A stretch of 32,238 nt of DNA, from positions 1 to 32,238 of the IMG/VR virus record IMGVR_UViG_3300048598_000575, one strand, 5' to 3'. Below, piece after piece: positions 1 to 31,794 of this stretch; the stretch's first letter is position 1; each line of letters begins with the position of its first letter. Source of the stretch: a virus. Its lineage: Duplodnaviria > Caudoviricetes. Made by a program: the position numbers and the translations under genes. Below the pieces are notes generated by a model. The model was not told where the DNA came from. It saw only the letters and a list, made by a program, of their open reading frames with translations, and did not search any database.

Positions 1-228
1 CTATTTTTTAAGCGGTACTCCCGCTCCGTCTTTAAAATTACCCGCCACGATCACAAAAATATCCACGATCCAGCCAAAACAGATCAGCCCCATGGTAAGC
101 GTATACAGTAGCCCGCGCCCAACCCGACCAACGTAGTAATAGTGTGCGCCAAACATCCCCAGACACAGGCATAGGATAAGCGCCGTCGTTTTGCTTTTAT
201 CACTGGTTTGTATCACGTAATTTGCCAT
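1..228 (-). CDS. TM2-domain membrane protein
   Basis: KSKTTALILCLCLGMFGAHYYYVGRVGRGLLYTLTMG..GWIVD matches the TM2 pattern (KS...A.lL..fLG.fGaH.fY.G). GGGAGG Shine-Dalgarno (SD) on the minus strand near 234-239. Confidence 0.85.
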   Translation of the reverse strand: MANYVIQTSDKSKTTALILCLCLGMFGAHYYYVGRVGRGLLYTLTMGLICFGWIVDIFVIVAGNFKDGAGVPLKK

Positions 229-303: not shown

Positions 304-738
304 CTACTGTCTATTACCTGATGGATCCTCGCTAATAATCAAATCGATACCGTATTTTTGGAGTGTCTCTTTGACCACATGCAGCGATTTTACCGGGTCG
401 CCTGCCAAATGTCTGGATGCAACAATTTTTTTGGATTCTTCGAGCGCAGAGCGCAAAGGTTCTGGGAATATTTCAAGGGATTCCGGCGATGCCGGGATCG
501 GATATCCTAAAATCGAGTAGACCTCTGGGCCCAAAACCTGGACGAATTTATCGATTATTTTTACATCCCGGGGAATTTTGCCACCTCGTTTCATATATGC
601 TGACATCTGGCCCTGGCTCACGCCAAATAGAGCGGCAAATTCGCTGATCGTGCGCCGGGAATTTCCGCGAAACTTATAAAACGCCTTATTGATGTATTCA
701 AACCAGGCGGTTGCAATCTCGTCTTTCACTTTTTCCAT
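304..738 (-). CDS. XRE-like HTH repressor (CI-like, no peptidase domain)
   Basis: HTH-like TISEFAALFGVSQGQMSAYMKRGGKIP; divergent from the early operon. Start moved to the ATG at 738, just downstream of a TATAAT. Confidence 0.75.
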   Translation of the reverse strand: MEKVKDEIATAWFEYINKAFYKFRGNSRRTISEFAALFGVSQGQMSAYMKRGGKIPRDVKIIDKFVQVLGPEVYSILGYPIPASPESLEIFPEPLRSALEESKKIVASRHLAGDPVKSLHVVKETLQKYGIDLIISEDPSGNRQ

Positions 739-747
739 GACATATCC

Positions 748-753
748 ATTATA
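748..753 (-). promoter_or_regulatory. -10 box of the repressor promoter
   Basis: TATAAT on the minus strand 9 nt upstream of the ATG at 738; no good -35 or SD. Confidence 0.55.
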
Positions 754-783
754 GTGCAAACATAGTAAAACCTATATAAACAC

Positions 784-1211: not shown

Positions 1212-2120
1212 ATGACAACCGATTTTGACCAGCTTCAAAATTTCGCTTCTTGGATGCGCAAAAAATCTACTCATTCAGTTTCTGACCTGACAATCAATGC
1301 TTATATTTCTGATGTCCGGCAGTTTTCACGTTGGGTATCCGAGCGCATCGGCGCCGAGTTCGAGCTGAGCGACCTGACATCTTTTGATCTTTCGGCTTAT
1401 GCCGACAGCTGCCTGGCAGCCGGGGCGAAAGCGTCGACCTGGAACCGTCGCCGTACGGCGCTGCGCCTTTTCTGCCGATTCTTGGTAGAGTCTGGCCAGC
1501 AGCATGATGACCAGTTTCGCGGGGTGGTGCGCATGATACGCGATCCTGAGGCTCCCAAATCGCTAAGTCAACAAGATTTTTACCGCTTTATGCGCGCGGC
1601 TGATCGCGCGGTGGCCAGCGCTCGCACTGATCTGCAGCGCCAAACGGCCATCCGCAACCGCGCCCTGATTGCAGTCCTGGGATATGCAGGACTGCGGGTC
1701 AGCGAAGCTCGTGAACTTTGCGTGTCTGACCTACTGCTTAGTGATCGCATTGGAGAGCTGACCGTGCGCCGCGGCAAAGGCAATAAACAGAGTACAGCCT
1801 ATTTGCAAAAAAATGGTCGTAACGAGCTGCGCGCCTGGCTAGAGATTCGGCCGCAGACGCTTGGCTCTCTCGTTTTTGGAGCGATCTCATCGCGCCAGGC
1901 AGAGCGCATCGTCAGTGAGATTGCTCGCGAGGCAGGCATCGAGACCACGGTCACACCTCATACCCTGCGTCATACCTACATCTACCGGATCTGGTCACAG
2001 ACCCATGATATAAACCTGTGTAAGTCACTCGGTCGCCACTCGCGTGCCGAGCAAACCTTGCGTTATGCCATGCCACACAAGAGCGACCTGATCGACGCTC
2101 TTGATTCGCTGGCATTTTAG
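1212..2120 (+). CDS. XerC/XerD-like tyrosine recombinase
   Basis: N-terminal SAM-like core-binding domain (TINAYISDVRQF) plus catalytic motifs GLRVSE, KGNK, PHTLRH and LGRHS...TLRY. 302 aa with no arm-binding domain. Confidence 0.93.
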   Translation: MTTDFDQLQNFASWMRKKSTHSVSDLTINAYISDVRQFSRWVSERIGAEFELSDLTSFDLSAYADSCLAAGAKASTWNRRRTALRLFCRFLVESGQQHDDQFRGVVRMIRDPEAPKSLSQQDFYRFMRAADRAVASARTDLQRQTAIRNRALIAVLGYAGLRVSEARELCVSDLLLSDRIGELTVRRGKGNKQSTAYLQKNGRNELRAWLEIRPQTLGSLVFGAISSRQAERIVSEIAREAGIETTVTPHTLRHTYIYRIWSQTHDINLCKSLGRHSRAEQTLRYAMPHKSDLIDALDSLAF

Positions 2121-2128
2121 TTGCCTTT

Positions 2129-2162
2129 CCTGCGGATGGAGCACTCCCCAGCCATCCGCAGG
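2129..2162 (+). promoter_or_regulatory. 11-bp stem-loop upstream of an RBS
   Basis: CCTGCGGATGG-agcactccccag-CCATCCGCAGG; no U-tract follows. Confidence 0.55.
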
Positions 2163-2180
2163 CGGGCATCAGGAGGAGTT

Positions 2181-2396
2181 ATGACTGAGCGCTATACCAC
2201 ACCTGGCACAGTCCAGGTCAGGATCCTCACTGACATAGAGGATACCGACAAGATCGCTGCTTTGATCACGCATGCCATCAAGGACGCTGGCTATAACGTG
2301 ATCGATTGCAGTGGCCAGTTTCCGGACCGCATGGATCCCGATCATCGGCGCAAGGTCCACATTACCGCGATACCCGCAGTAGATAGAGGTGGATGA
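2181..2396 (+). CDS. Hypothetical protein
   Basis: AGGAGG SD then ATG at 2181; ATGA overlap with the next gene. Confidence 0.7.
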   Translation: MTERYTTPGTVQVRILTDIEDTDKIAALITHAIKDAGYNVIDCSGQFPDRMDPDHRRKVHITAIPAVDRGG

Positions 2397-2749
2397 TGGA
2401 TGCAATAGATGTTTTGATCTCTACCAATACAAAATTTAACAATGCGCAATCGACTATAAAAGCACCTTTCCCCGTCGACCCCTGGAATGCTTTTTTGCAA
2501 ATCGCCCGCGATAACGTACCGGCGAAATTTGCAGCTTTCTTGGTCGACGCTAAACCGCACTTCGATAAATGGCCGCCAGCGTTTCTCACGGAATACGACG
2601 GCTTTGAGATTCAGCATGACGGGATAGTCCCCGTCAAGGTCAAGTTCGAAGACTCGGGGGTTTATTATCTTATATATGGGTGGAGTACCAGAAGTCTCGA
2701 GGAGGCCATCATATCGGCGCATAATTTTTGGCTGGCCAAAGAGCAGTAG
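2393..2749 (+). CDS. Hypothetical protein
   Basis: GAGGT SD; coupled to the previous gene; 118 aa. Confidence 0.65.
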   Translation: MMDAIDVLISTNTKFNNAQSTIKAPFPVDPWNAFLQIARDNVPAKFAAFLVDAKPHFDKWPPAFLTEYDGFEIQHDGIVPVKVKFEDSGVYYLIYGWSTRSLEEAIISAHNFWLAKEQ

Positions 2750-2768
2750 CGGGAAGCATTTTAGTCGC

Positions 2769-3137
2769 ATGAAATATTCATTTCTTTTCTCTGCGAGTTC
2801 TATTCCCGCTACGCAGTTGTCAGAGTATCAGACTGCGATCTGCGCATGGTATAGGCAGACATCTCAGATCATAGCAGCTCTAGCCTGGCATGAAGTGGAA
2901 ATAAAAGCAGAAGAAGAAAAACTCCCAAAGTTCTCAACTTCATACCCCCGGGCCCGTCTGGGCGGGTCAGCGCGAAAACCATTGGCCCTGGGTCAAAGTG
3001 AGACAGATACATCTATGTCGCATAACCCCGCATTATGCGACATAGAACAAGCCTTTTCGGCCACTGGCCGGGCAAACCAGGCTGATTATCTCACGCAAAA
3101 CGCGTCGCATAACTCGCAAGCAGACCACCGGGCATAG
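2769..3137 (+). CDS. Possible hypothetical protein (overlaps the dif-like site)
   Basis: Open frame from the ATG at 2769 with a weak SD; the C-terminal half looks like translated regulatory DNA. Confidence 0.3.
   Translation: MKYSFLFSASSIPATQLSEYQTAICAWYRQTSQIIAALAWHEVEIKAEEEKLPKFSTSYPRARLGGSARKPLALGQSETDTSMSHNPALCDIEQAFSATGRANQADYLTQNASHNSQADHRA
3012..3046. other. Symmetric dif/lox-like tyrosine recombinase site
   Basis: TCTATGTCGCATAA-CCCCGCA-TTATGCGACATAGA: perfect 14-bp arms around an asymmetric 7-bp spacer. The inner CGCATAA...TTATG matches the E. coli dif core. Confidence 0.7.
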
Positions 3138-3240
3138 GGGGTACGCCCAAAATGGAGCACAGACACCCCCTACCCCCCACCCCCCTGACGCATACGCTAA
3201 ATTTTGTGAGCAAATTTAAAAAGGTTTGGAGAGAGCAGCC

Positions 3241-4452
3241 ATGACAGACAAAAAAACGAACGACGAACTGGTAGATGATGCGAAACGGCTCAACCCGATC
3301 GAGCAGATCGTGGCAGAGACACCAGGGTTTACCCTGACTGGTCACGGGCGCTATCTGACGACGCGGGAGCATGACAGTCTGATAATCGATACGCACACAG
3401 GCGGGTATCACTATAACTCGGCAGAAGAGCATGGAGACGTGATCAACTGGATCGAGCACCGTAATGGCTGGGATTTTAAAGCAACGGTGGAGTGGCTGTG
3501 TCGGCGGGCAGGGATTGCTGAGCCTGACTGGGGAGCCGGGTCACCCGGGCAGCGCATCGCGGCACGGGCCAGGATGGACGTCTATGATGCTGCTACTGAG
3601 GTGTTTACCAGCTATCTCTGGGCGGATAAGGATGCGCTGGCCTATCCACAGCGGCGCGGCTGGACGGATGAGACGATCAAAACGGCGATGCTGGGGTATA
3701 CCGGTAACGCCGACCAGCGCGAGGCAGTCAAAGGCGCACTGATCAAAACGATCGTTGAGGGTGGAGGCGACCCCCAAAGCCCGGCTGCTGTTGCTATGGT
3801 CGGATACCGCGGGGACGTGCGCCGGTGGATGTTGGATCACGAACTGAACCCAGAGGAGCAATCAAAATGGATCGAACAAGGGTTCATTCCTGGGCTGGTG
3901 GGGCGCGACATGCTGATCTACCCGCACGTGATCGGCGGACGGGTGGTCTACCTCTCAGGGCGTCGGATCCATGTGGAGCCTGGGGAGCATAACAAAAGCT
4001 ACAACCTGCCAGTGACTCTGGCTGGGCAAAAACAGATCTACTGCAACTGGATCTGGTCAAGCAAGGTCATGACCTGCGTGGTGACTGAGGGACAGGCAAA
4101 CGCAGTTACTCTAGCGCAATGGGGACTGCCAGCGGTAGCACTGATGGGGACGTCAGTAGATGAACATACAGCGCGATTTTTGGGTGTGGGTGATGCGGAC
4201 CGCGAGGTAGCCATCTACCTGGCACTGGATAGTGATGCTGCCGGAAAAAAAGCGGTTGGAATGAGCGAAGAGAAATTTAAGCCGGGATTGCTTGCCGAAA
4301 ACAAATACCTTAGATTTTTTGGACCAACGGCCAGGGTGCTTGACTGGAAAGGGATCGGCGGGATCGACACGTATATCGATCAGACTGACCCAGAGCGACC
4401 AGAGCGAGAGGTCACTGACGCCAACGATCTACTGAGGGGGATGATCGCATGA
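3241..4452 (+). CDS. DnaG-like TOPRIM primase
   Basis: N-terminal zinc-binding-domain-like fold (GDVINWIEHRNGWDFKATVEWL), RRGWTDETIK, LIYP..GRVVYLSGR and TOPRIM motifs VTEG, LALDSDAAG, DANDLL. Confidence 0.85.
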   Translation: MTDKKTNDELVDDAKRLNPIEQIVAETPGFTLTGHGRYLTTREHDSLIIDTHTGGYHYNSAEEHGDVINWIEHRNGWDFKATVEWLCRRAGIAEPDWGAGSPGQRIAARARMDVYDAATEVFTSYLWADKDALAYPQRRGWTDETIKTAMLGYTGNADQREAVKGALIKTIVEGGGDPQSPAAVAMVGYRGDVRRWMLDHELNPEEQSKWIEQGFIPGLVGRDMLIYPHVIGGRVVYLSGRRIHVEPGEHNKSYNLPVTLAGQKQIYCNWIWSSKVMTCVVTEGQANAVTLAQWGLPAVALMGTSVDEHTARFLGVGDADREVAIYLALDSDAAGKKAVGMSEEKFKPGLLAENKYLRFFGPTARVLDWKGIGGIDTYIDQTDPERPEREVTDANDLLRGMIA

Positions 4453-6221
4453 CCCATAAAATCATCGCAACTGACGAGCAAATGCGGCTGATCAACGCGG
4501 CGATCAATGAGTCCGAGACGTACATCCAGGTGATCGCGCGACGGGTTGGAACGCTGAAGGGCGCTGAAAAAGATCAGGCACTGCCCGAGTTTGTGCGGAT
4601 CGCGGCGCAGCTCCCCGAGATGACGTATACGCGCTATGAGAGCATGCTGGCGCGAGCGGTGGGGTTGACAACGATGGAGCTGCGCAAGCAGATCAAGGTC
4701 GCTAAAAAAGAGGGCGATAAAAGCGAGGATGGCGAAGACGTTGAGTGTACGTTGGGCGGATATATCGATGGTTACGTGGTGGAGTACCTCTATGACTCAG
4801 ACGACGATACCGCCAGTCTGGCCTGGCGAACCCCAGATGGAAAACTTGAGGCCGGCACAAGTATTTCGATTTCACAAAAAAAATACATGGCGATGATGCC
4901 CAACGAGACGATCAGACGGGGCGCTATTCTCTTTCCGGCAAAGTTGGGAGAGCTGCGCGATACCAAAACTCTAGCTGCCATGATCGAGAGTTTCGTCAAA
5001 CGGGTTTATCTCCTCCCTACACCGCTGTATGCCAAAATCATTAGCTACTATGTTTTGCTCACCTGGATGTATGACAGTTTTCCAGCAATCCCGTACCTGC
5101 GGGTCACTGGAGAGCCTGGCAGCGGTAAGAGTGAGTTGATGCTGCGCATCGCGCTGCTTTGTTATCGCCGGTTTGTGGCCGGTGGAGCGAGTTCAACAGC
5201 ATCCCTTTTTCGCATGGTCGATAAATACAAAGGCACTCTGTTTATGGATGAGATGGATTTGCAAAAAAGCGATGCCAGCGCCGACATGATCAAGTTATTG
5301 GTGCAAGGATCCATGCGCGATGGCGCGCCGATCATCCGCTGCGAAGAAACGATGATCGATGGGGTAAAGGTGATACAAGAGATTATTTTTCCAGTTTATT
5401 GCCCTAAGCTACTCTCTATGCAAGGCGAGTTCTACGACAAAGCCGTGGCCAGCCGCTGTATTACGTTTCCCCTACAAGCGAGGGAGACCTATGAGCTGAT
5501 CGATGCTGGGATCCCGCTGAGCATCAACGAGCCAATGCGACGCGAGGCACAGGCCATGCGCAATCTGCTGCTGGCCTGGCGGCTGAAACACTGGCAGCCG
5601 AACATCGAGATCGACCCAGATTTTTACAATCTTAACATCTCAGCCCGTCTTAACCAGGTTACTGTGGCCATCCAGATGATTGCCGAAGACGATGAGCCAT
5701 TACGGCAAGAGATCAACCAATTTATGGAAGAGTACCAGCGCTATATGACGCAGGACAAAAACATGACCATCGAGGCACGCATCATCGAAGCTATCTGGGT
5801 AATTTATAAATTTAGGGGGGCATCAATGGTGGACCGAGAAGCGGATGGGCGCGAAAAGATCAAAATCGGCTATGTCACGGATATGGCCAACAAGATCATC
5901 AAAGCAATGAATATGGAATCAGACGAGGATGATCAGACTGCGAAGAAAAAAGATTTGCTGTCTCCGCAAAAAGTAGGCCACCGGCTGCGTGAAAAGCTAC
6001 AGATGGAGACATCTCCACGATCACGAGATGGGTACTCAGTATATTGGGATTTGCGGCACATGGAGGCTCTATCAAAACGATACGGTGTCACTCCCAATGA
6101 TCTGACCGACCCAGATGAGGGCAAGAATATTTTACCCACTGCTCAGGTTAACCTGGGTAAACCGATCCCAACGGCGAAGCAAGAAGAACTTCCCGCAGAG
6201 AATAGTGATGGGGAACGATGA
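4449..6221 (+). CDS. P-loop ATPase, probable replicative helicase/origin-binding protein
   Basis: Walker A GEPGSGKS, Walker B TLFMDE, arginine finger ASRC. Coupled to the primase and followed by iterons. Confidence 0.75.
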   Translation: MTHKIIATDEQMRLINAAINESETYIQVIARRVGTLKGAEKDQALPEFVRIAAQLPEMTYTRYESMLARAVGLTTMELRKQIKVAKKEGDKSEDGEDVECTLGGYIDGYVVEYLYDSDDDTASLAWRTPDGKLEAGTSISISQKKYMAMMPNETIRRGAILFPAKLGELRDTKTLAAMIESFVKRVYLLPTPLYAKIISYYVLLTWMYDSFPAIPYLRVTGEPGSGKSELMLRIALLCYRRFVAGGASSTASLFRMVDKYKGTLFMDEMDLQKSDASADMIKLLVQGSMRDGAPIIRCEETMIDGVKVIQEIIFPVYCPKLLSMQGEFYDKAVASRCITFPLQARETYELIDAGIPLSINEPMRREAQAMRNLLLAWRLKHWQPNIEIDPDFYNLNISARLNQVTVAIQMIAEDDEPLRQEINQFMEEYQRYMTQDKNMTIEARIIEAIWVIYKFRGASMVDREADGREKIKIGYVTDMANKIIKAMNMESDEDDQTAKKKDLLSPQKVGHRLREKLQMETSPRSRDGYSVYWDLRHMEALSKRYGVTPNDLTDPDEGKNILPTAQVNLGKPIPTAKQEELPAENSDGER

Positions 6222-6530
6222 ACATTGTGAACAAAATGAACTTCGTGAACAAGTTTTTGACTACTCCTGACGAAATAAAATTCTCGAAAGGTGAAAAAGT
6301 GAAAAATCTCTATTTACGGTCGCATACATGTTCACAAAGTTCACAAGTTCACGGATTCATCTAAATTGGTAATTATTTATTACTGAAAGTTACTAATTAT
6401 TTACTAAAAATGATGTATTTATGTACTTTTGTGAAGTGATATGAGGATAAACGGATTTTTTGAAATCTCGGTAACAGAAAAGTAATAAAAATCCGTGAAC
6501 TTTGAAAAAAGATGTTCACAACATGTTCAC
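6218..6530. repeat. Probable replication origin: TGAAC/GTTCAC iterons flanking AT-rich DNA
   Basis: TGAAC at 6219, 6228, 6237, 6246 (9-bp period); GTTCAC at 6330, 6339, 6347; AT-rich ~6361-6490; GTGAAC at 6495; GTTCAC at 6514, 6525. Confidence 0.8.
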
Positions 6531-6546
6531 AAAATAGGAGGAAAAA

Positions 6547-6777
6547 ATGGGATTAAGAGAAGGATTGTTATGGTACATGAGCCCGCTGCCCACGCTGGAA
6601 CAAAAAATCAGCGAGGGGATCCGACGCTACTGTATGAAATATGGTGATATGCCAACGTTGGTGGAGGGCGCCGAGGGAGAGATCCCGACAGAGGGGATGA
6701 CGGTGGATGGAGTGCGGGTGATGCCTAGCATAGCCATCCGACAAGGATATATTTTGGTGGGGGTAGAGCATGAGTGA
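6547..6777 (+). CDS. Hypothetical phage protein
   Basis: AGGAGG SD; overlaps the next gene start. Confidence 0.75.
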   Translation: MGLREGLLWYMSPLPTLEQKISEGIRRYCMKYGDMPTLVEGAEGEIPTEGMTVDGVRVMPSIAIRQGYILVGVEHE

Positions 6778-7075
6778 TCTGATGTGTATCGTATGCGGCA
6801 AAGTGTTGGCCAGCCCGCTGGATCAGTACGGCCCGAGCGAGAGCGTACGCTGCTGGCAGTGCATTTCCAAAGGAAATGCAACTAAAGAGGATAAGACCAT
6901 CGCCATGGCGCTCACGGAGTTGCAGGATGCGGTGAATTTAGAGACAGGCATATCTGAGATGATGGCACGCGCTGAAGCTAAACATCGCGAGGCTAAAACC
7001 AAACTCAAAAAACTGTATGGAACTCACCCGTGGCTGGAGCTGAGAGTGTCGGAAATCGAGACGCGCTATGGATAA
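6770..7075 (+). CDS. Hypothetical zinc-finger/coiled-coil protein
   Basis: CxxC...CxxC (CIVC, CWQC) followed by a helical segment. Confidence 0.7.
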   Translation: MSDLMCIVCGKVLASPLDQYGPSESVRCWQCISKGNATKEDKTIAMALTELQDAVNLETGISEMMARAEAKHREAKTKLKKLYGTHPWLELRVSEIETRYG

Positions 7076-7871
7076 AATGCTGCGTCCATTGATGAGATAC
7101 CCAGGTGGAAAATGGAAAATCGCGCCGTGGATCATCGAAAACCTGCCGAGGCATGAGGTCTATGTGGAGGTTTGCGGCGGGGCGGCATCGGTGCTGCTAC
7201 GCAAGCCGATGAGCCGGACGGAGATCTATAACGATGTGGATGGGGACGTGGTCAATGTCTTCCGGGTGATGCGCGACCAAGAAAAAGCCATAAAACTGGC
7301 CGAACTGCTGCGATGGACGCCGTTTGCAGTCGAGGAGTATGAAAACTGCTGGGTGCGCGGCATCGATGACATCGATCAGGCACGCAAGTTGATCGTGCGC
7401 AGTTATTTTGGCATTGGGTCCGACTCTGTTTTTCGACGCAATGGGTTCAGGCGTGGATTCAAAAACAAAAAACTCGACGCGAACAACGCTTTTTACTCCT
7501 ATCAGGAGTGCATCCCCTTTTTTCGAGACCGGCTGCGGAATGTAGTCATCGAAAACATGGATTTTGCGAAACTGATCGGGATCTATGACTCGGCGGAGAC
7601 GCTATTTTATGTTGACCCGCCGTATCTCGATGAGGTATGCAGCCGAAACGCTGTGGTGTATCAGCATAGCCTTAGCCGGGAGCGACACATCGAGCTGGCA
7701 GAGCAACTCAATCGCTGCCAGGGTAACGTGGTTTTGAGCGGGTACCCCTCTGAGTTATATGAGCAGTTATACCCGGATTGGATGACCGTGACCAAAAAAG
7801 CGATCGCAGGCGGTGGGCATGTGCGGACAGAAATGATCTGGATCAAACATCCAGATAATCGATTATTTTAG
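7068..7871 (+). CDS. D12-class (Dam-like) N6-adenine DNA methyltransferase
   Basis: RYPGGK, YVEVCGGAASV, EIYND and catalytic DPPY. Target sequence cannot be inferred. Confidence 0.92.
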   Translation: MDKMLRPLMRYPGGKWKIAPWIIENLPRHEVYVEVCGGAASVLLRKPMSRTEIYNDVDGDVVNVFRVMRDQEKAIKLAELLRWTPFAVEEYENCWVRGIDDIDQARKLIVRSYFGIGSDSVFRRNGFRRGFKNKKLDANNAFYSYQECIPFFRDRLRNVVIENMDFAKLIGIYDSAETLFYVDPPYLDEVCSRNAVVYQHSLSRERHIELAEQLNRCQGNVVLSGYPSELYEQLYPDWMTVTKKAIAGGGHVRTEMIWIKHPDNRLF

Positions 7872-7881
7872 GAGGCAGAAA

Positions 7882-8628
7882 ATGGCAATCGTTGCGGTGA
7901 TCAATCAAAAGGGCGGAGTCGGAAAAACGACGACGGCGGTAACGCTGGCGCATGGGCTGGTGCTAGACTGCGGCAAACGAGTTTTGCTCGTCGACCTGGA
8001 TACCCAGGGCAACGCGGCGGACGCGCTGGGGGTCGGAAAAAATGGAGCGCTCATGGAGTGGCTGATGCTGGAGCGGGACATCGCTGACGTGGCCATCGAG
8101 GCGCGGCCGAACCTCAACCTGATCCGGTCGGACAAATCTACAGTACGTCTCAAGGTATCACTGGCGGGGATGGATTTTCGTGAGCGGGTCCTAAGCAGGG
8201 CGCTGCGTGGGTATGAGCGGGAGTATGAGACGGTGGTGATGGACTGCGCTCCCTCGGTGGATGTGCTGCAGATCGCGGCGCTGATGGCGGCCGACCTGGT
8301 GATCATCCCGACCAAACTGGACCAGTTTTCGGTGGCTGGGGTGGTGGACACGATCAAAAGCCTGCGCACGGTGCAGGATGAGGCCGGGGCGCGCGCCAAA
8401 CTGGCGGGGATCGTGCCGACGTTTTACGACCGCGTGACGAGTGAGTCGCACGGCCAGCTCAAAGCGCTGGCGGGGGCGTTTGGCGCCTATGTGTGGCCAG
8501 CGGTGCCGCAGGATGTGAGCTGCCGGGAGGGGTCGCGGCTGGGAAAGACGGTCTGGGAGTATGGCCAGACCGGCAGGGCAGCAGGGGCGTATCGGGAAAT
8601 TTTGGACCGACTGGAAAAGATGTTGTAG
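7882..8628 (+). CDS. parA: ParA/Soj family ATPase
   Basis: NQKGGVGKTT, VLLVDLDTQGNA, VVMDCAP, ALMAADLVIIP. Confidence 0.95.
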   Translation: MAIVAVINQKGGVGKTTTAVTLAHGLVLDCGKRVLLVDLDTQGNAADALGVGKNGALMEWLMLERDIADVAIEARPNLNLIRSDKSTVRLKVSLAGMDFRERVLSRALRGYEREYETVVMDCAPSVDVLQIAALMAADLVIIPTKLDQFSVAGVVDTIKSLRTVQDEAGARAKLAGIVPTFYDRVTSESHGQLKALAGAFGAYVWPAVPQDVSCREGSRLGKTVWEYGQTGRAAGAYREILDRLEKML

Positions 8629-8637
8629 GAGGTAAAA

Positions 8638-9075
8638 ATGGCGAAAGACGCAAAAGGTTTTTTGGACCCATCGGTGGCAGAGCTCTTAGGTGCTGGAGAG
8701 CGGCGCAGCGAGGAGCGAGCGCTGCCACGGGCGGAACGGAGCAAAGTGAAAAAGCGCCGGGCGCAGCAGGATGAGCGCAACGGACGGAGGGCAGTGTATG
8801 ACCTGGCGCCGGAGCTGATCCACCAGGTGGGTGAGCTGGCGCGGGAGCAGGGGACGACGGCGTCGATGGTGGCAGGGATCCTGATCCCGTATGCGCTGCA
8901 GGCGATCGAGCGCGGAGATCTAGATCTCGGGGAGTACCGGCGGCTGCTGGTGCGCAATCCGCGGTATGAGGCGGAGCTGGTATGGGAGGATAAAAATGAT
9001 GGGCTACAAAGGTGTGGCGGTGAAAGGGATGGTGAAAAATGTGTGAATATGAAAAGAAGATCAATGAAAAACTAG
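8638..9075 (+). CDS. Putative ParA partner (disordered basic N-terminus plus RHH-like domain)
   Basis: Directly after parA with an AGGAGGT SD. RRAVYDLAPELIHQVGELAREQGTTASMVAGILI is RHH-like. Confidence 0.6.
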   Translation: MAKDAKGFLDPSVAELLGAGERRSEERALPRAERSKVKKRRAQQDERNGRRAVYDLAPELIHQVGELAREQGTTASMVAGILIPYALQAIERGDLDLGEYRRLLVRNPRYEAELVWEDKNDGLQRCGGERDGEKCVNMKRRSMKN

Positions 9076-9245
9076 CAAAACTTAATTTGAGATTATCAGT
9101 CGATCTGGTGATTGGTGAAAACAGAATTTTAACAAGAATCCCTCTTCGAAAGCCAAAAAAAACGCGGGGAAAAACCAAACCATATCTTCCCCATCTACTG
9201 CCCATTTTGCGGCGAAAAATATCCAGATCTGAACTCGAACGATGA
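9039..9245 (+). CDS. Hypothetical basic protein
   Basis: 68-aa ORF in operon orientation; AT-rich. Confidence 0.4.
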   Translation: MCEYEKKINEKLAKLNLRLSVDLVIGENRILTRIPLRKPKKTRGKTKPYLPHLLPILRRKISRSELER

Positions 9246-9295
9246 AAATGCGGAAGCTGGTATGAAAACCGCCAATAGCATCGAGGAGGAAAATA

Positions 9296-9661
9296 ATGAG
9301 TGAGCAAAAGAAATTAGAAAATATTAAACCGTGCCCATTTTGCGGCGAAGAACCCATAACAAGGACAATCGATGGAGAGGTCCGCGTATATCATGTTGAT
9401 CAGGGATGCCCTATGTCAGCAGGGTGGACAACATTAGAGATTTGGCAAAAGAGACCGCTGGAAGATAAGCTGACGGAAATCAACCCGCGAGCGATGAAAC
9501 TGCTTCGGGCCAAAAAACCATTATTAGTGGTGTCTGAGACCGAGAGCTATTATCTCGTTGTGTATAACATGATCCGCAATAATGAAAAAATGGCAGGCAC
9601 CTGGACAGAGGAAGATGAGAGCCGGTATCAGGCGGCGGTCGAGAAATGGAACCGAGAATGA
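9296..9661 (+). CDS. Lar (restriction alleviation)-like zinc-ribbon protein
   Basis: KPCPFCG motif and W..R motif (WQKR); GAGGAGG SD. Confidence 0.65.
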   Translation: MSEQKKLENIKPCPFCGEEPITRTIDGEVRVYHVDQGCPMSAGWTTLEIWQKRPLEDKLTEINPRAMKLLRAKKPLLVVSETESYYLVVYNMIRNNEKMAGTWTEEDESRYQAAVEKWNRE

Positions 9662-9846
9662 CAGACGAAAAACAGATCGACCCGGAACTGATTGAGCGGG
9701 CAAAAGCGCTGATCCAACCGGTAACGCGACAGGTCTACCTGACGCAACTGCAGCGGGAGCTGCACGTGTCATTTTATCTGGCGCTCGACATCCGCAACGA
9801 GCTGGAGCGGTTAGGGCTGGTGACGGTGCCGAAGAAAAACGGATAA
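9658..9846 (+). CDS. Stand-alone FtsK gamma-domain-like winged-helix protein
   Basis: DPELIERAKALI..VYLTQLQRELHVSFYLALDIRNELERLGLVTVPKKNG aligns by eye with FtsK-gamma (DPLF.QA...QR.F.IGY.RA.RI...E..GIV....NG); ATGA-coupled start. Confidence 0.75.
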   Translation: MTDEKQIDPELIERAKALIQPVTRQVYLTQLQRELHVSFYLALDIRNELERLGLVTVPKKNG

Positions 9847-9855
9847 ACCTCGCCT

Positions 9856-9950
9856 ATGCGGTACCGCTTACATATATATAGCGGTACCGCATGGAAAACA
9901 CGCAGGTACCGACGTGCGGTACCGTATCAATTAACCAAACGGTACCGCAT
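9856..9950. repeat. Array of five (GC)GGTACC(GC) palindromes, candidate parS centromere
   Basis: GGTACC at 9860, 9883, 9905, 9918, 9941 in intergenic DNA. The first two lie within a perfect inverted repeat ATGCGGTACCGCT-N11-AGCGGTACCGCAT. Confidence 0.7.
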
Positions 9951-10039
9951 AACAAACGCAAACGCGCCACAAATGGCGTAATGGAACGAAAACGATGATC
10001 TATAGCGCGAGGTAGAAAATCCGCGGGAAAGGGCAAAAG

Positions 10040-31272: not shown

Positions 31273-31315
31273 ATACCGTTATATGTATTGACAAATACAT
31301 ATAACGGTATATAAT
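31273..31315 (+). promoter_or_regulatory. Consensus promoter inside a perfect 17-bp inverted repeat
   Basis: TTGACA (31288-31293), 16 nt, TATAAT (31310-31315). Repeat: ATACCGTTATATGTATT-gaca-AATACATATAACGGTAT. Confidence 0.88.
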
Positions 31316-31360: not shown

Positions 31361-31714
31361 ATGGAAACGACATTCGCAGCTTTACCGATCAAAGCACACT
31401 TCACGGCTCTCTATAACGGCACCTCATATACTAAAATCGATGGAAAACGAGCTCAGGAAAACGGATACAACGCCGGTTATATGGCCCCAGACACAAAAGT
31501 GGAATGCGCCGAGCTCGACAACAATGTATCTTCTACCCAAACAGTGGCCTCAACAGTTCGCATGGCAACAACCAAACAAATCGCGTACATCACTGATTTG
31601 ATGGCTCGCTACGGGAGAGAGTTCAAAAAACCAGAAAATTTCACGCTGGAAGACGCGAGTAATTTTATCGACACAATTTTGCATGAACCGACCGCTTTGA
31701 ACCTTTTTGACTAA
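31361..31714 (+). CDS. Hypothetical protein
   Basis: AAGGAG SD; C-terminal ATxKQ..YI..L...T..AS..ID helical motif. Confidence 0.8.
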   Translation: METTFAALPIKAHFTALYNGTSYTKIDGKRAQENGYNAGYMAPDTKVECAELDNNVSSTQTVASTVRMATTKQIAYITDLMARYGREFKKPENFTLEDASNFIDTILHEPTALNLFD

Positions 31715-31727
31715 GCCCGAAAGGGCT

Positions 31728-31776
31728 GGTCTATCGGCTGAACGCCGGTACTGATGAGCCCCAGCAGGGCGAAACC
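31728..31776 (+). ncRNA. Type III hammerhead ribozyme
   Basis: GGUC (cleavage after C31731); stem I UAUCGGC/GCCGGUA with loop UGAAC; core CUGAUGA; stem II GCCC/GGGC with loop CAGCA; GAA; ACC pairs with GGU to form stem III. Confidence 0.9.
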
Positions 31777-31794
31777 CAAAAAAAGGAGAAAAAA

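Follow-up and report, generated by a model that had tools for sequence, protein, structure and literature searches.

A phage-borne Xer-like recombinase and a symmetric dif-like site beside the primase gene: a candidate two-part module of temperate tailed phages

We analyzed a 32,238-nucleotide stretch of DNA (hereafter the window), which is the entire IMG/VR virus record IMGVR_UViG_3300048598_000575, classified as a provirus and 74% complete. Its early region codes for an Xer-like tyrosine recombinase (1212..2120, plus strand), and 892 bp past the stop codon of this gene lies a perfect 14-7-14 inverted repeat (3012..3046). Comparisons across related sequences, namely co-occurrence of the two elements and covariation of the repeat arms with the recombinase clades, support the view that recombinase and site form a unit. 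The site is larger than the 14-7-14 repeat, its core, and also includes a third arm and a conserved upstream motif, both missed in an earlier note on this DNA. That note had envisaged a self-contained system of recombinase, site and a free FtsK-gamma activator, the latter being a 62-aa protein encoded at 9658..9846 (plus strand). The pairing of recombinase and site stands, whereas the free activator is not supported.

The recombinase has 302 aa and matches PF00589 (E 1.7e-20, residues 132-288) and PF02899 (residues 20-93), with the arm-binding domain absent. This core-binding plus catalytic layout, together with its active site, marks it as a simple, arm-less tyrosine recombinase. Its NCBIfam scores lie below the curated cut-offs for XerC (122 bits against 335), XerD (110 against 330) and XerA (113 against 220), so that orthology to any of these three was rejected; XerA and XerD are the nearest solved sequences. 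All seven active-site residues (R162, E165, K189, H250, R253, H276 and Y285) are present, and they are invariant in 25/25 sequences of an alignment comprising the window protein and 24 of its 39 hits. At the positions of XerD E183/E184 the protein has K/N, with N at the E184 position. In a quick tree, from which the recombinase clades were taken, the family forms a clade of its own (SH-aLRT 93), apart from the Xer-like genes of Chloroflexota and Patescibacteria genomes. A scan with the single protein recovered no relatives in viral contigs; searches with the DNA pattern and with alignments did. The gene is the third in a rightward run that follows a divergent repressor-like gene, which bears out its earlier placement within an early operon rather than at a prophage edge, with the proviso that the left edge of this provirus record is missing. 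An 11-12-11 repeat (2129-2162) directly follows the recombinase stop codon.

An asymmetric 7-bp spacer separates the two arms of the core, TGTCGCATAA (3016-3025) and TTATGCGACA (3033-3042). The symmetric dif-like repeat that the earlier note had pointed to about 0.9 kb downstream of the recombinase is real and beyond chance: across 20 simulated windows the longest arm was 11 bp, and the core pattern appeared in 0/100 shuffles. Conservation of the arm extends over only 10-11 bp: contigs of close strains regain identity at 3015. The inner arm matches, at GCGCATAA/TCGCATAA, the XerC arm of E. coli, with the dif sequence taken from PMC3025954. In relatives the arms are conserved and the spacer is variable, differing even between two phages (L256 and L257) with helicases more than 90% alike. 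Its length in 40 relatives picked by their helicase is 7 bp in 24, 6 bp in 15 and 8 bp in one, and each of the 23 records scanned has one core.

The third arm (3103-3112) is a direct repeat of the left arm on the plus strand, exactly 60 bp past the core; with a partly conserved TTATC that precedes it (3086-3090), it makes up a feature spanning 3086..3112. It recurs 59-61 bp past the core in 31/34 loci of mixed origin (one locus, L260, was excluded from the count because its core was not found) and in 25/27 main-clade phages picked by helicase. In six loci (L249, L006, L256, L257, L258 and L011) the ribosome-binding site of the primase gene follows within a few bases of it. On the other side of the core, the upstream motif (2908..2945, plus strand) features a CAGTAGTAG-like element, an A-run and AAGTTC.C. 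The CAGTAGTAG-like element is present with at most two mismatches in 36/50 loci, usually at 70-120 bp upstream of the core, and the motif is weakly similar to the repeats that follow the helicase gene (median 5.3 vs 3.2 bits). The location of the site is tied to the primase start (66-263 bp) and not to the recombinase gene (0.45-4.7 kb). Between the third arm and the primase gene (3130-3190) lie G-run and C-run tracts that recur in relatives.

The recombinase and the site were seen together among relatives found in three independent ways. An exact search of viral contigs with the 11-bp arm returned five loci, four of which lie between a recombinase homolog and a primase homolog. Among metagenome loci of at least 5 kb with a 7-bp spacer, 12/13 show the recombinase-site-primase context, several of them being the same phage. 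The remaining set was chosen by the helicase alone, to avoid circularity, with one representative per 90% cluster. A symmetric core lies within 330 bp of the primase gene in 40/49 of these relatives, compared to 21/640 random windows, and a co-oriented tyrosine recombinase lies upstream in 31 of the 35 with at least 5 kb of flank; both elements are present in 24 of these 35, the recombinase only in seven, the core only in three and neither in one. Trees further resolve three recombinase clades with three arm types at the same place, namely TGTCGCATAA-like, TGCAACATAA and GTTCCGATAA. Within the main clade, variants of the third arm mirror the variants of the core in their own genome (18 phages; summed distance 11 vs 36 when permuted, p 0.0002), a result inflated by pre-filtering of the rows at two mismatches or fewer.

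Downstream of the site lies a replication block. A Toprim primase (3241..4452, plus strand; Pfam Toprim_2, PHROG primase) starts 199 bp past the core and is followed by a P-loop protein (4449..6221, plus strand) with Walker motifs invariant in 17 sequences. The latter has no Pfam family of its own; on these motifs and on Atlas look-alikes it is likely a DUF3631-like replicative helicase, and in many relatives the helicase is fused to the primase. The repeat-rich stretch after it (6217..6530) is a likely replication origin, with GTGAAC/GTTCAC repeats flanking an AT-rich center: eight of the nine copies in the window fall inside it, and the median number of such repeats after the helicase is 8 in 48 loci, compared to a mean of 0.97 in random windows. 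Downstream of the helicase in one relative (G025; L290 7990-10005) is a 671-aa FtsK/SpoIIIE-like protein with no Pfam gamma match.

The 62-aa protein was correctly recognized earlier as resembling the FtsK-gamma winged helix, to the extent that three concordant methods, each weak, are consistent with that fold. Its Pfam match to FtsK_gamma (PF09397; E 0.005, 16.9 bits) is under the gathering cut-off of 30.6; its Atlas feature score to the FtsK_gamma cluster is 0.91; and its AlphaFold model (pLDDT 86) retrieves FtsK-gamma structures in the top nine Foldseek rows (TM ~0.65, E 0.16-0.42, none with E<=0.001). The co-occurrence of such a free protein with the recombinase and site, by which the earlier note proposed to judge its model, fails: profiles built here found the free gamma frame in 0/22 whole relatives and 0/64 helicase-picked loci, and since they rest on 5-9 sequences they may miss divergent winged helices. 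Pfam FtsK_gamma itself was found in 1/27 related records, fused inside a primase-helicase, with the window's own frame recovered as a control, and in 1/49 unrelated phage records. Kin of the 62-aa protein comprise a 97% twin and four distant proteins only, with no viral locus. The XerD-activating peptide of FtsK is RQFRIGYNR, with R1289-E184 as the key pair (PMC5052618). The corresponding RELHVSFYL of the 62-aa protein retains Q1288 and R1289 and carries V in place of I1293, and it lacks R1292, G1294 and N1296. A complex prediction of the recombinase with this protein scored 0.00 and is no evidence either way. We consider that the protein is probably not part of the recombinase-site module. 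Fused canonical FtsK-gamma domains occur between the primase and helicase parts in G008 (L262 1-2850, minus strand) and in L335 6384-9683/L347 2341-5706. Directly after the 62-aa frame, at 9855-9951, a block of 100 bp contains five GGTACC palindromes and, among them, a 13-11-13 repeat; the block is skipped in close strains, which keep the frame.

From the site anatomy, the co-occurrence, the covariation, the intact catalytic residues and the separate integrase of relatives, all observed directly, we infer binding, catalysis, direction and biological role by analogy with Cre/lox, TnpI/IRS and XerA. The account that we favor, at about even confidence, is that the recombinase binds the three-armed site and turns multimers of the phage circle, once excised and replicating, into monomers without FtsK or a gamma protein. 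The gene would be expressed from the early promoter and be silent in the lysogen; a single protein species would bind both core arms, as in Cre/loxP; the asymmetric spacer would set direction; and the third arm might, like the extra sites of TnpI/IRS, have an accessory or control function. The monomers could then serve a plasmid-like carrier state or re-integration. An Xer-like enzyme is usually read as a resolvase in plasmid prophages (PMC8026635). Several points weigh against this account. Three of the 35 well-flanked relatives have a core, in each case with a 6-bp spacer, without a co-oriented recombinase, and seven have the recombinase without a core at threshold, three of these with a weaker recognizable one. 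The two outer clades, with TGCAACATAA and GTTCCGATAA arms, lack the third arm (0/7), and phage clade is confounded with host in the arm-recombinase covariation. ParA occurs in only 7/27 related records, and a plasmid state is therefore not general. Close strains retain the 62-aa frame while its neighbors are swapped, and a canonical gamma domain lies inside the primase-helicase of two distinct relatives, both of which would favor an activator. Finally, a fixed place beside the primase gene is not required by plain dimer resolution, and this leaves regulatory and concatemer-making roles alive.

Under the regulatory alternative, the protein would occupy the three arms across the primase leader and set copy number by repressing or looping the replication operon. 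This would account for a site fixed relative to the primase start and for a third arm immediately ahead of the ribosome-binding site in the six loci named above. The alternative has precedents in MrpR (PMC10516654) and in the control by TnpI of the promoters in its site (PMC7157771). As a full explanation we regard it as unlikely, given that the catalytic residues are all invariant, that conserved arms around a variable 6-8 bp spacer are the geometry of a crossover site, and that no sigma-70-like promoter was found at the site; regulation may well accompany recombination rather than replace it. Multimer-making, whereby crossover of sister copies near the origin would yield concatemers or a rolling circle for packaging, is suggested by the distance of the site from the likely origin (~3 kb) and from the conserved motif (~100 bp) and by an early-operon position suited to lytic expression. 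No annealing protein is named among the 46 window proteins or among 51 proteins picked from five relatives, which would also fit, with this support weakened by most small early proteins being unannotated. Accessory sites usually impose resolution only (PMC3130261), and we find multimer-making distinctly unlikely. Slightly less probable still appears a replication-coupled switch, in which the primase-helicase, having loaded at the motif that lies 100 bp away from the core, would trigger the recombinase as FtsK does XerD, in two relatives via the built-in gamma domain and in this phage maybe via the free one; if true, crossover would be tied to the start of phage replication. Use of the site by host Xer, like plasmid cer or psi, with the phage recombinase doing something else, finds some backing in metagenomes: the same arms with 6-bp spacers lie without a recombinase of this clade in 87/119 loci (many of them short), and 47 of these 87 spacers are within two mismatches of the E. 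coli dif spacer, compared to 6.5% expected. A few genomes of the hosts' class also have symmetric 6-bp sites, three of them beside a recombinase, and this reading would fit the three phages that have a 6-bp core but lack a co-oriented recombinase. We nonetheless rate host use very unlikely: only 11/201 genomes of the hosts' class match at two mismatches or fewer, no more than a reversed-pattern control; the arms track the phage recombinase clade; and most phage spacers are 7 bp (24/40). The core pattern with a 6-8 bp spacer and zero mismatches was not found in five Chloroflexota genomes. The class genomes with symmetric 6-bp-spacer sites (L315, L317, L318, L319, L321 and L324; three beside an Xer-like gene) offer candidate single-recombinase dif sites in their own right.

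Activation of the phage recombinase at the site by the free FtsK-gamma protein, as the earlier note proposed, draws on the fold of the 62-aa protein, on its retention of Q1288 and of R1289, the most critical XerD contact (PMC5052618), and on the two activator-favoring points given above. It is made highly improbable by the absence of the free frame from relatives, by the Pfam rates (1/27 in related vs 1/49 in unrelated phage records), by the three missing contacts and by the K/N of the recombinase at E183/E184, where most relatives without gamma have E. Furthermore, other phages have free gamma genes with no assigned role (PMC8190038), and with detached gamma the products are catenated and hinder unlinking (PMC3130261). 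The notion that the phage integrates at this site, also raised earlier, was not sustained. Arm-less tyrosine integrases do exist (PMC8138268), and no other integrase is visible in this record; an attP here, with the recombinase as integrase, is nevertheless barely credible. Integration would sever the replication genes from the early promoter. A serine recombinase (333-582 aa frame) is present in 18 of 27 related records and a second tyrosine recombinase in four more, for a separate integrase in 22/27 (12/13 among records at least 90% complete). The prophage L204 runs from host genes through a large serine integrase, TM2, repressor and early genes to the recombinase, an intact site and the primase, and the window is itself a provirus with an intact site. 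An unbroken site in a prophage that is integrated, together with the other integrase of relatives, leads us to conclude that the site is not attP. As the window starts at its TM2 gene and the serine integrase adjoins TM2 in L204, the integrase of the window was likely cut off; the left edge is truncated at the position that the integrase occupies in relatives. With the phages owning recombinases and the site intact in L204, we also rejected an IMEX, an element that lacks a recombinase and whose dif-like attP is split when it integrates at host dif. The plasmid-prophage class was set aside on the provirus record, the integrase in 22/27 and ParA in 7/27 relatives, while a facultative circle state may exist.

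Other pairs of sites were considered and rejected as well. Those 38 kb apart on one contig (L129/L140) are not attL/attR, their loci being identical over 16.7 kb, as in a repeated or circular assembly; those 3.3 kb apart in L153 are not an inversion switch, since the spacers differ and the second site belongs to the att region of a second integrase. Cyclization on entry as in P1 was judged unlikely, by inference only, because the site lies ~11 kb before the terminase gene. Phages with tyrosine integrases (L153 4766-4920, L131 9700-9950, L012 6480-6760 and L009 6700-6730) have similar arms beside the integrase start, which are probably attP; in three cases these arms surround a tRNA-like stretch, with a full tRNA-Arg in L012.

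By gene content (terminase, portal, protease, capsid, tape measure and endolysin) the window is a tailed temperate phage, and both its ends coincide with stop codons. The host is likely a member of the Chloroflexota, judging from relatives in named genomes (L204, L222, L227 and L231) and a Bellilinea protein. The left end comprises the TM2 gene (1-228, minus strand; gene order shared with prophage L204), the repressor-like gene (304-759, minus strand; divergent from the rightward early run), an operator-like 13-9-13 repeat (812-846) and a gene in the Cro position (859-1056) that belongs to the rightward run. A ParA-family ATPase with a small partner gene (7882..9075, plus strand; Pfam AAA_31) is shared with the minority of relatives counted above. 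Toward the right end, a perfect 17-4-17 inverted repeat with TTGACA (31273-31310), upstream of the last two genes, is a likely operator-promoter. At 31700-31790, CTGATGA...GAAAC lies between flanking stems, in what we take to be a likeness to the hammerhead ribozyme core, with no Rfam match at gathering score there or for any family in the window. A sequencing-run search listed no RNA holder.

Phage-borne Xer-like enzymes have usually been read as integrases or plasmid-prophage markers, mostly without a known site. The two-part recombinase-site module is apparently undescribed in the literature searched, without subscription papers, and the supplements of PMC8138268 might already place the clade. 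The integrating phage family presented here offers dozens of natural recombinase-site pairs with clade-specific arms, a third arm and a fixed place. It makes testable both the need for a second recombinase in an integrating phage and the sufficiency of one extra arm for direction, and it is a source of candidate orthogonal Cre-like pairs.

Among known systems, the Cre/lox type offers a parallel, in that a phage has its own recombinase and its own symmetric site, inherited together. The loxP geometry is 13-8-13, whereas the sites here have dif-like 10-11-mer arms, mostly a 7-bp spacer, a third arm and a primase-fixed place. The replication region recalls the alpha/ori/crr replicon of phage P4, with its primase-helicase, short GTTCAC-type repeats and second conserved element across the gene; in contrast to P4, the helicase here is DUF3631-like and the upstream motif is only weakly origin-like. 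The GenBank phage Rctr41k, also considered, is laid out differently. With P1 Cre/loxP and the Xer-like resolvases of plasmid prophages (PMC8026635), our phages share a single phage-encoded arm-less recombinase, a site whose symmetric arms flank an asymmetric spacer, a presumed role in multimer resolution and, in some members, ParA; unlike those systems, the phages here also have a dedicated integrase and occur integrated. TnpI/IRS of Tn4430 and Tn5401 (PMC7157771) likewise combines a core inverted pair with directly repeated extra binding sites and overlaps the control region of neighboring genes. TnpI, however, uses two direct repeats and resolves transposon cointegrates, whereas here we see no transposase, one clear extra arm plus the partly conserved TTATC, and a site 0.45-4.7 kb downstream of the recombinase gene. 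XerA/dif, XerS/difSL and XerH/difH (PMC5357621) have similarly symmetric 11-bp arms, and XerA is FtsK-independent; the present recombinase differs in being phage-borne, in its own clade and with a site away from the chromosome terminus. To XerCD/dif/FtsK-gamma (PMC5052618, PMC3130261) the likeness lies in the XerC-like inner arm and the gamma-like small frame; its 28-bp site has unlike arms and a 6-bp center, compared to one recombinase, two equal arms and a 7-bp center here, and the contact residues are partly lost on both the recombinase and the gamma sides. XafT of the TLC phage activates host XerD for integration (10.1101/2021.09.09.459576), a layout different from the present one. MrpR of phage SPbeta (PMC10516654) has the tyrosine-recombinase fold and belongs to a temperate phage that integrates via another enzyme; most of its catalytic residues are gone and it binds at many sites, whereas the recombinase described here keeps the full set of residues and is paired with one core per genome.

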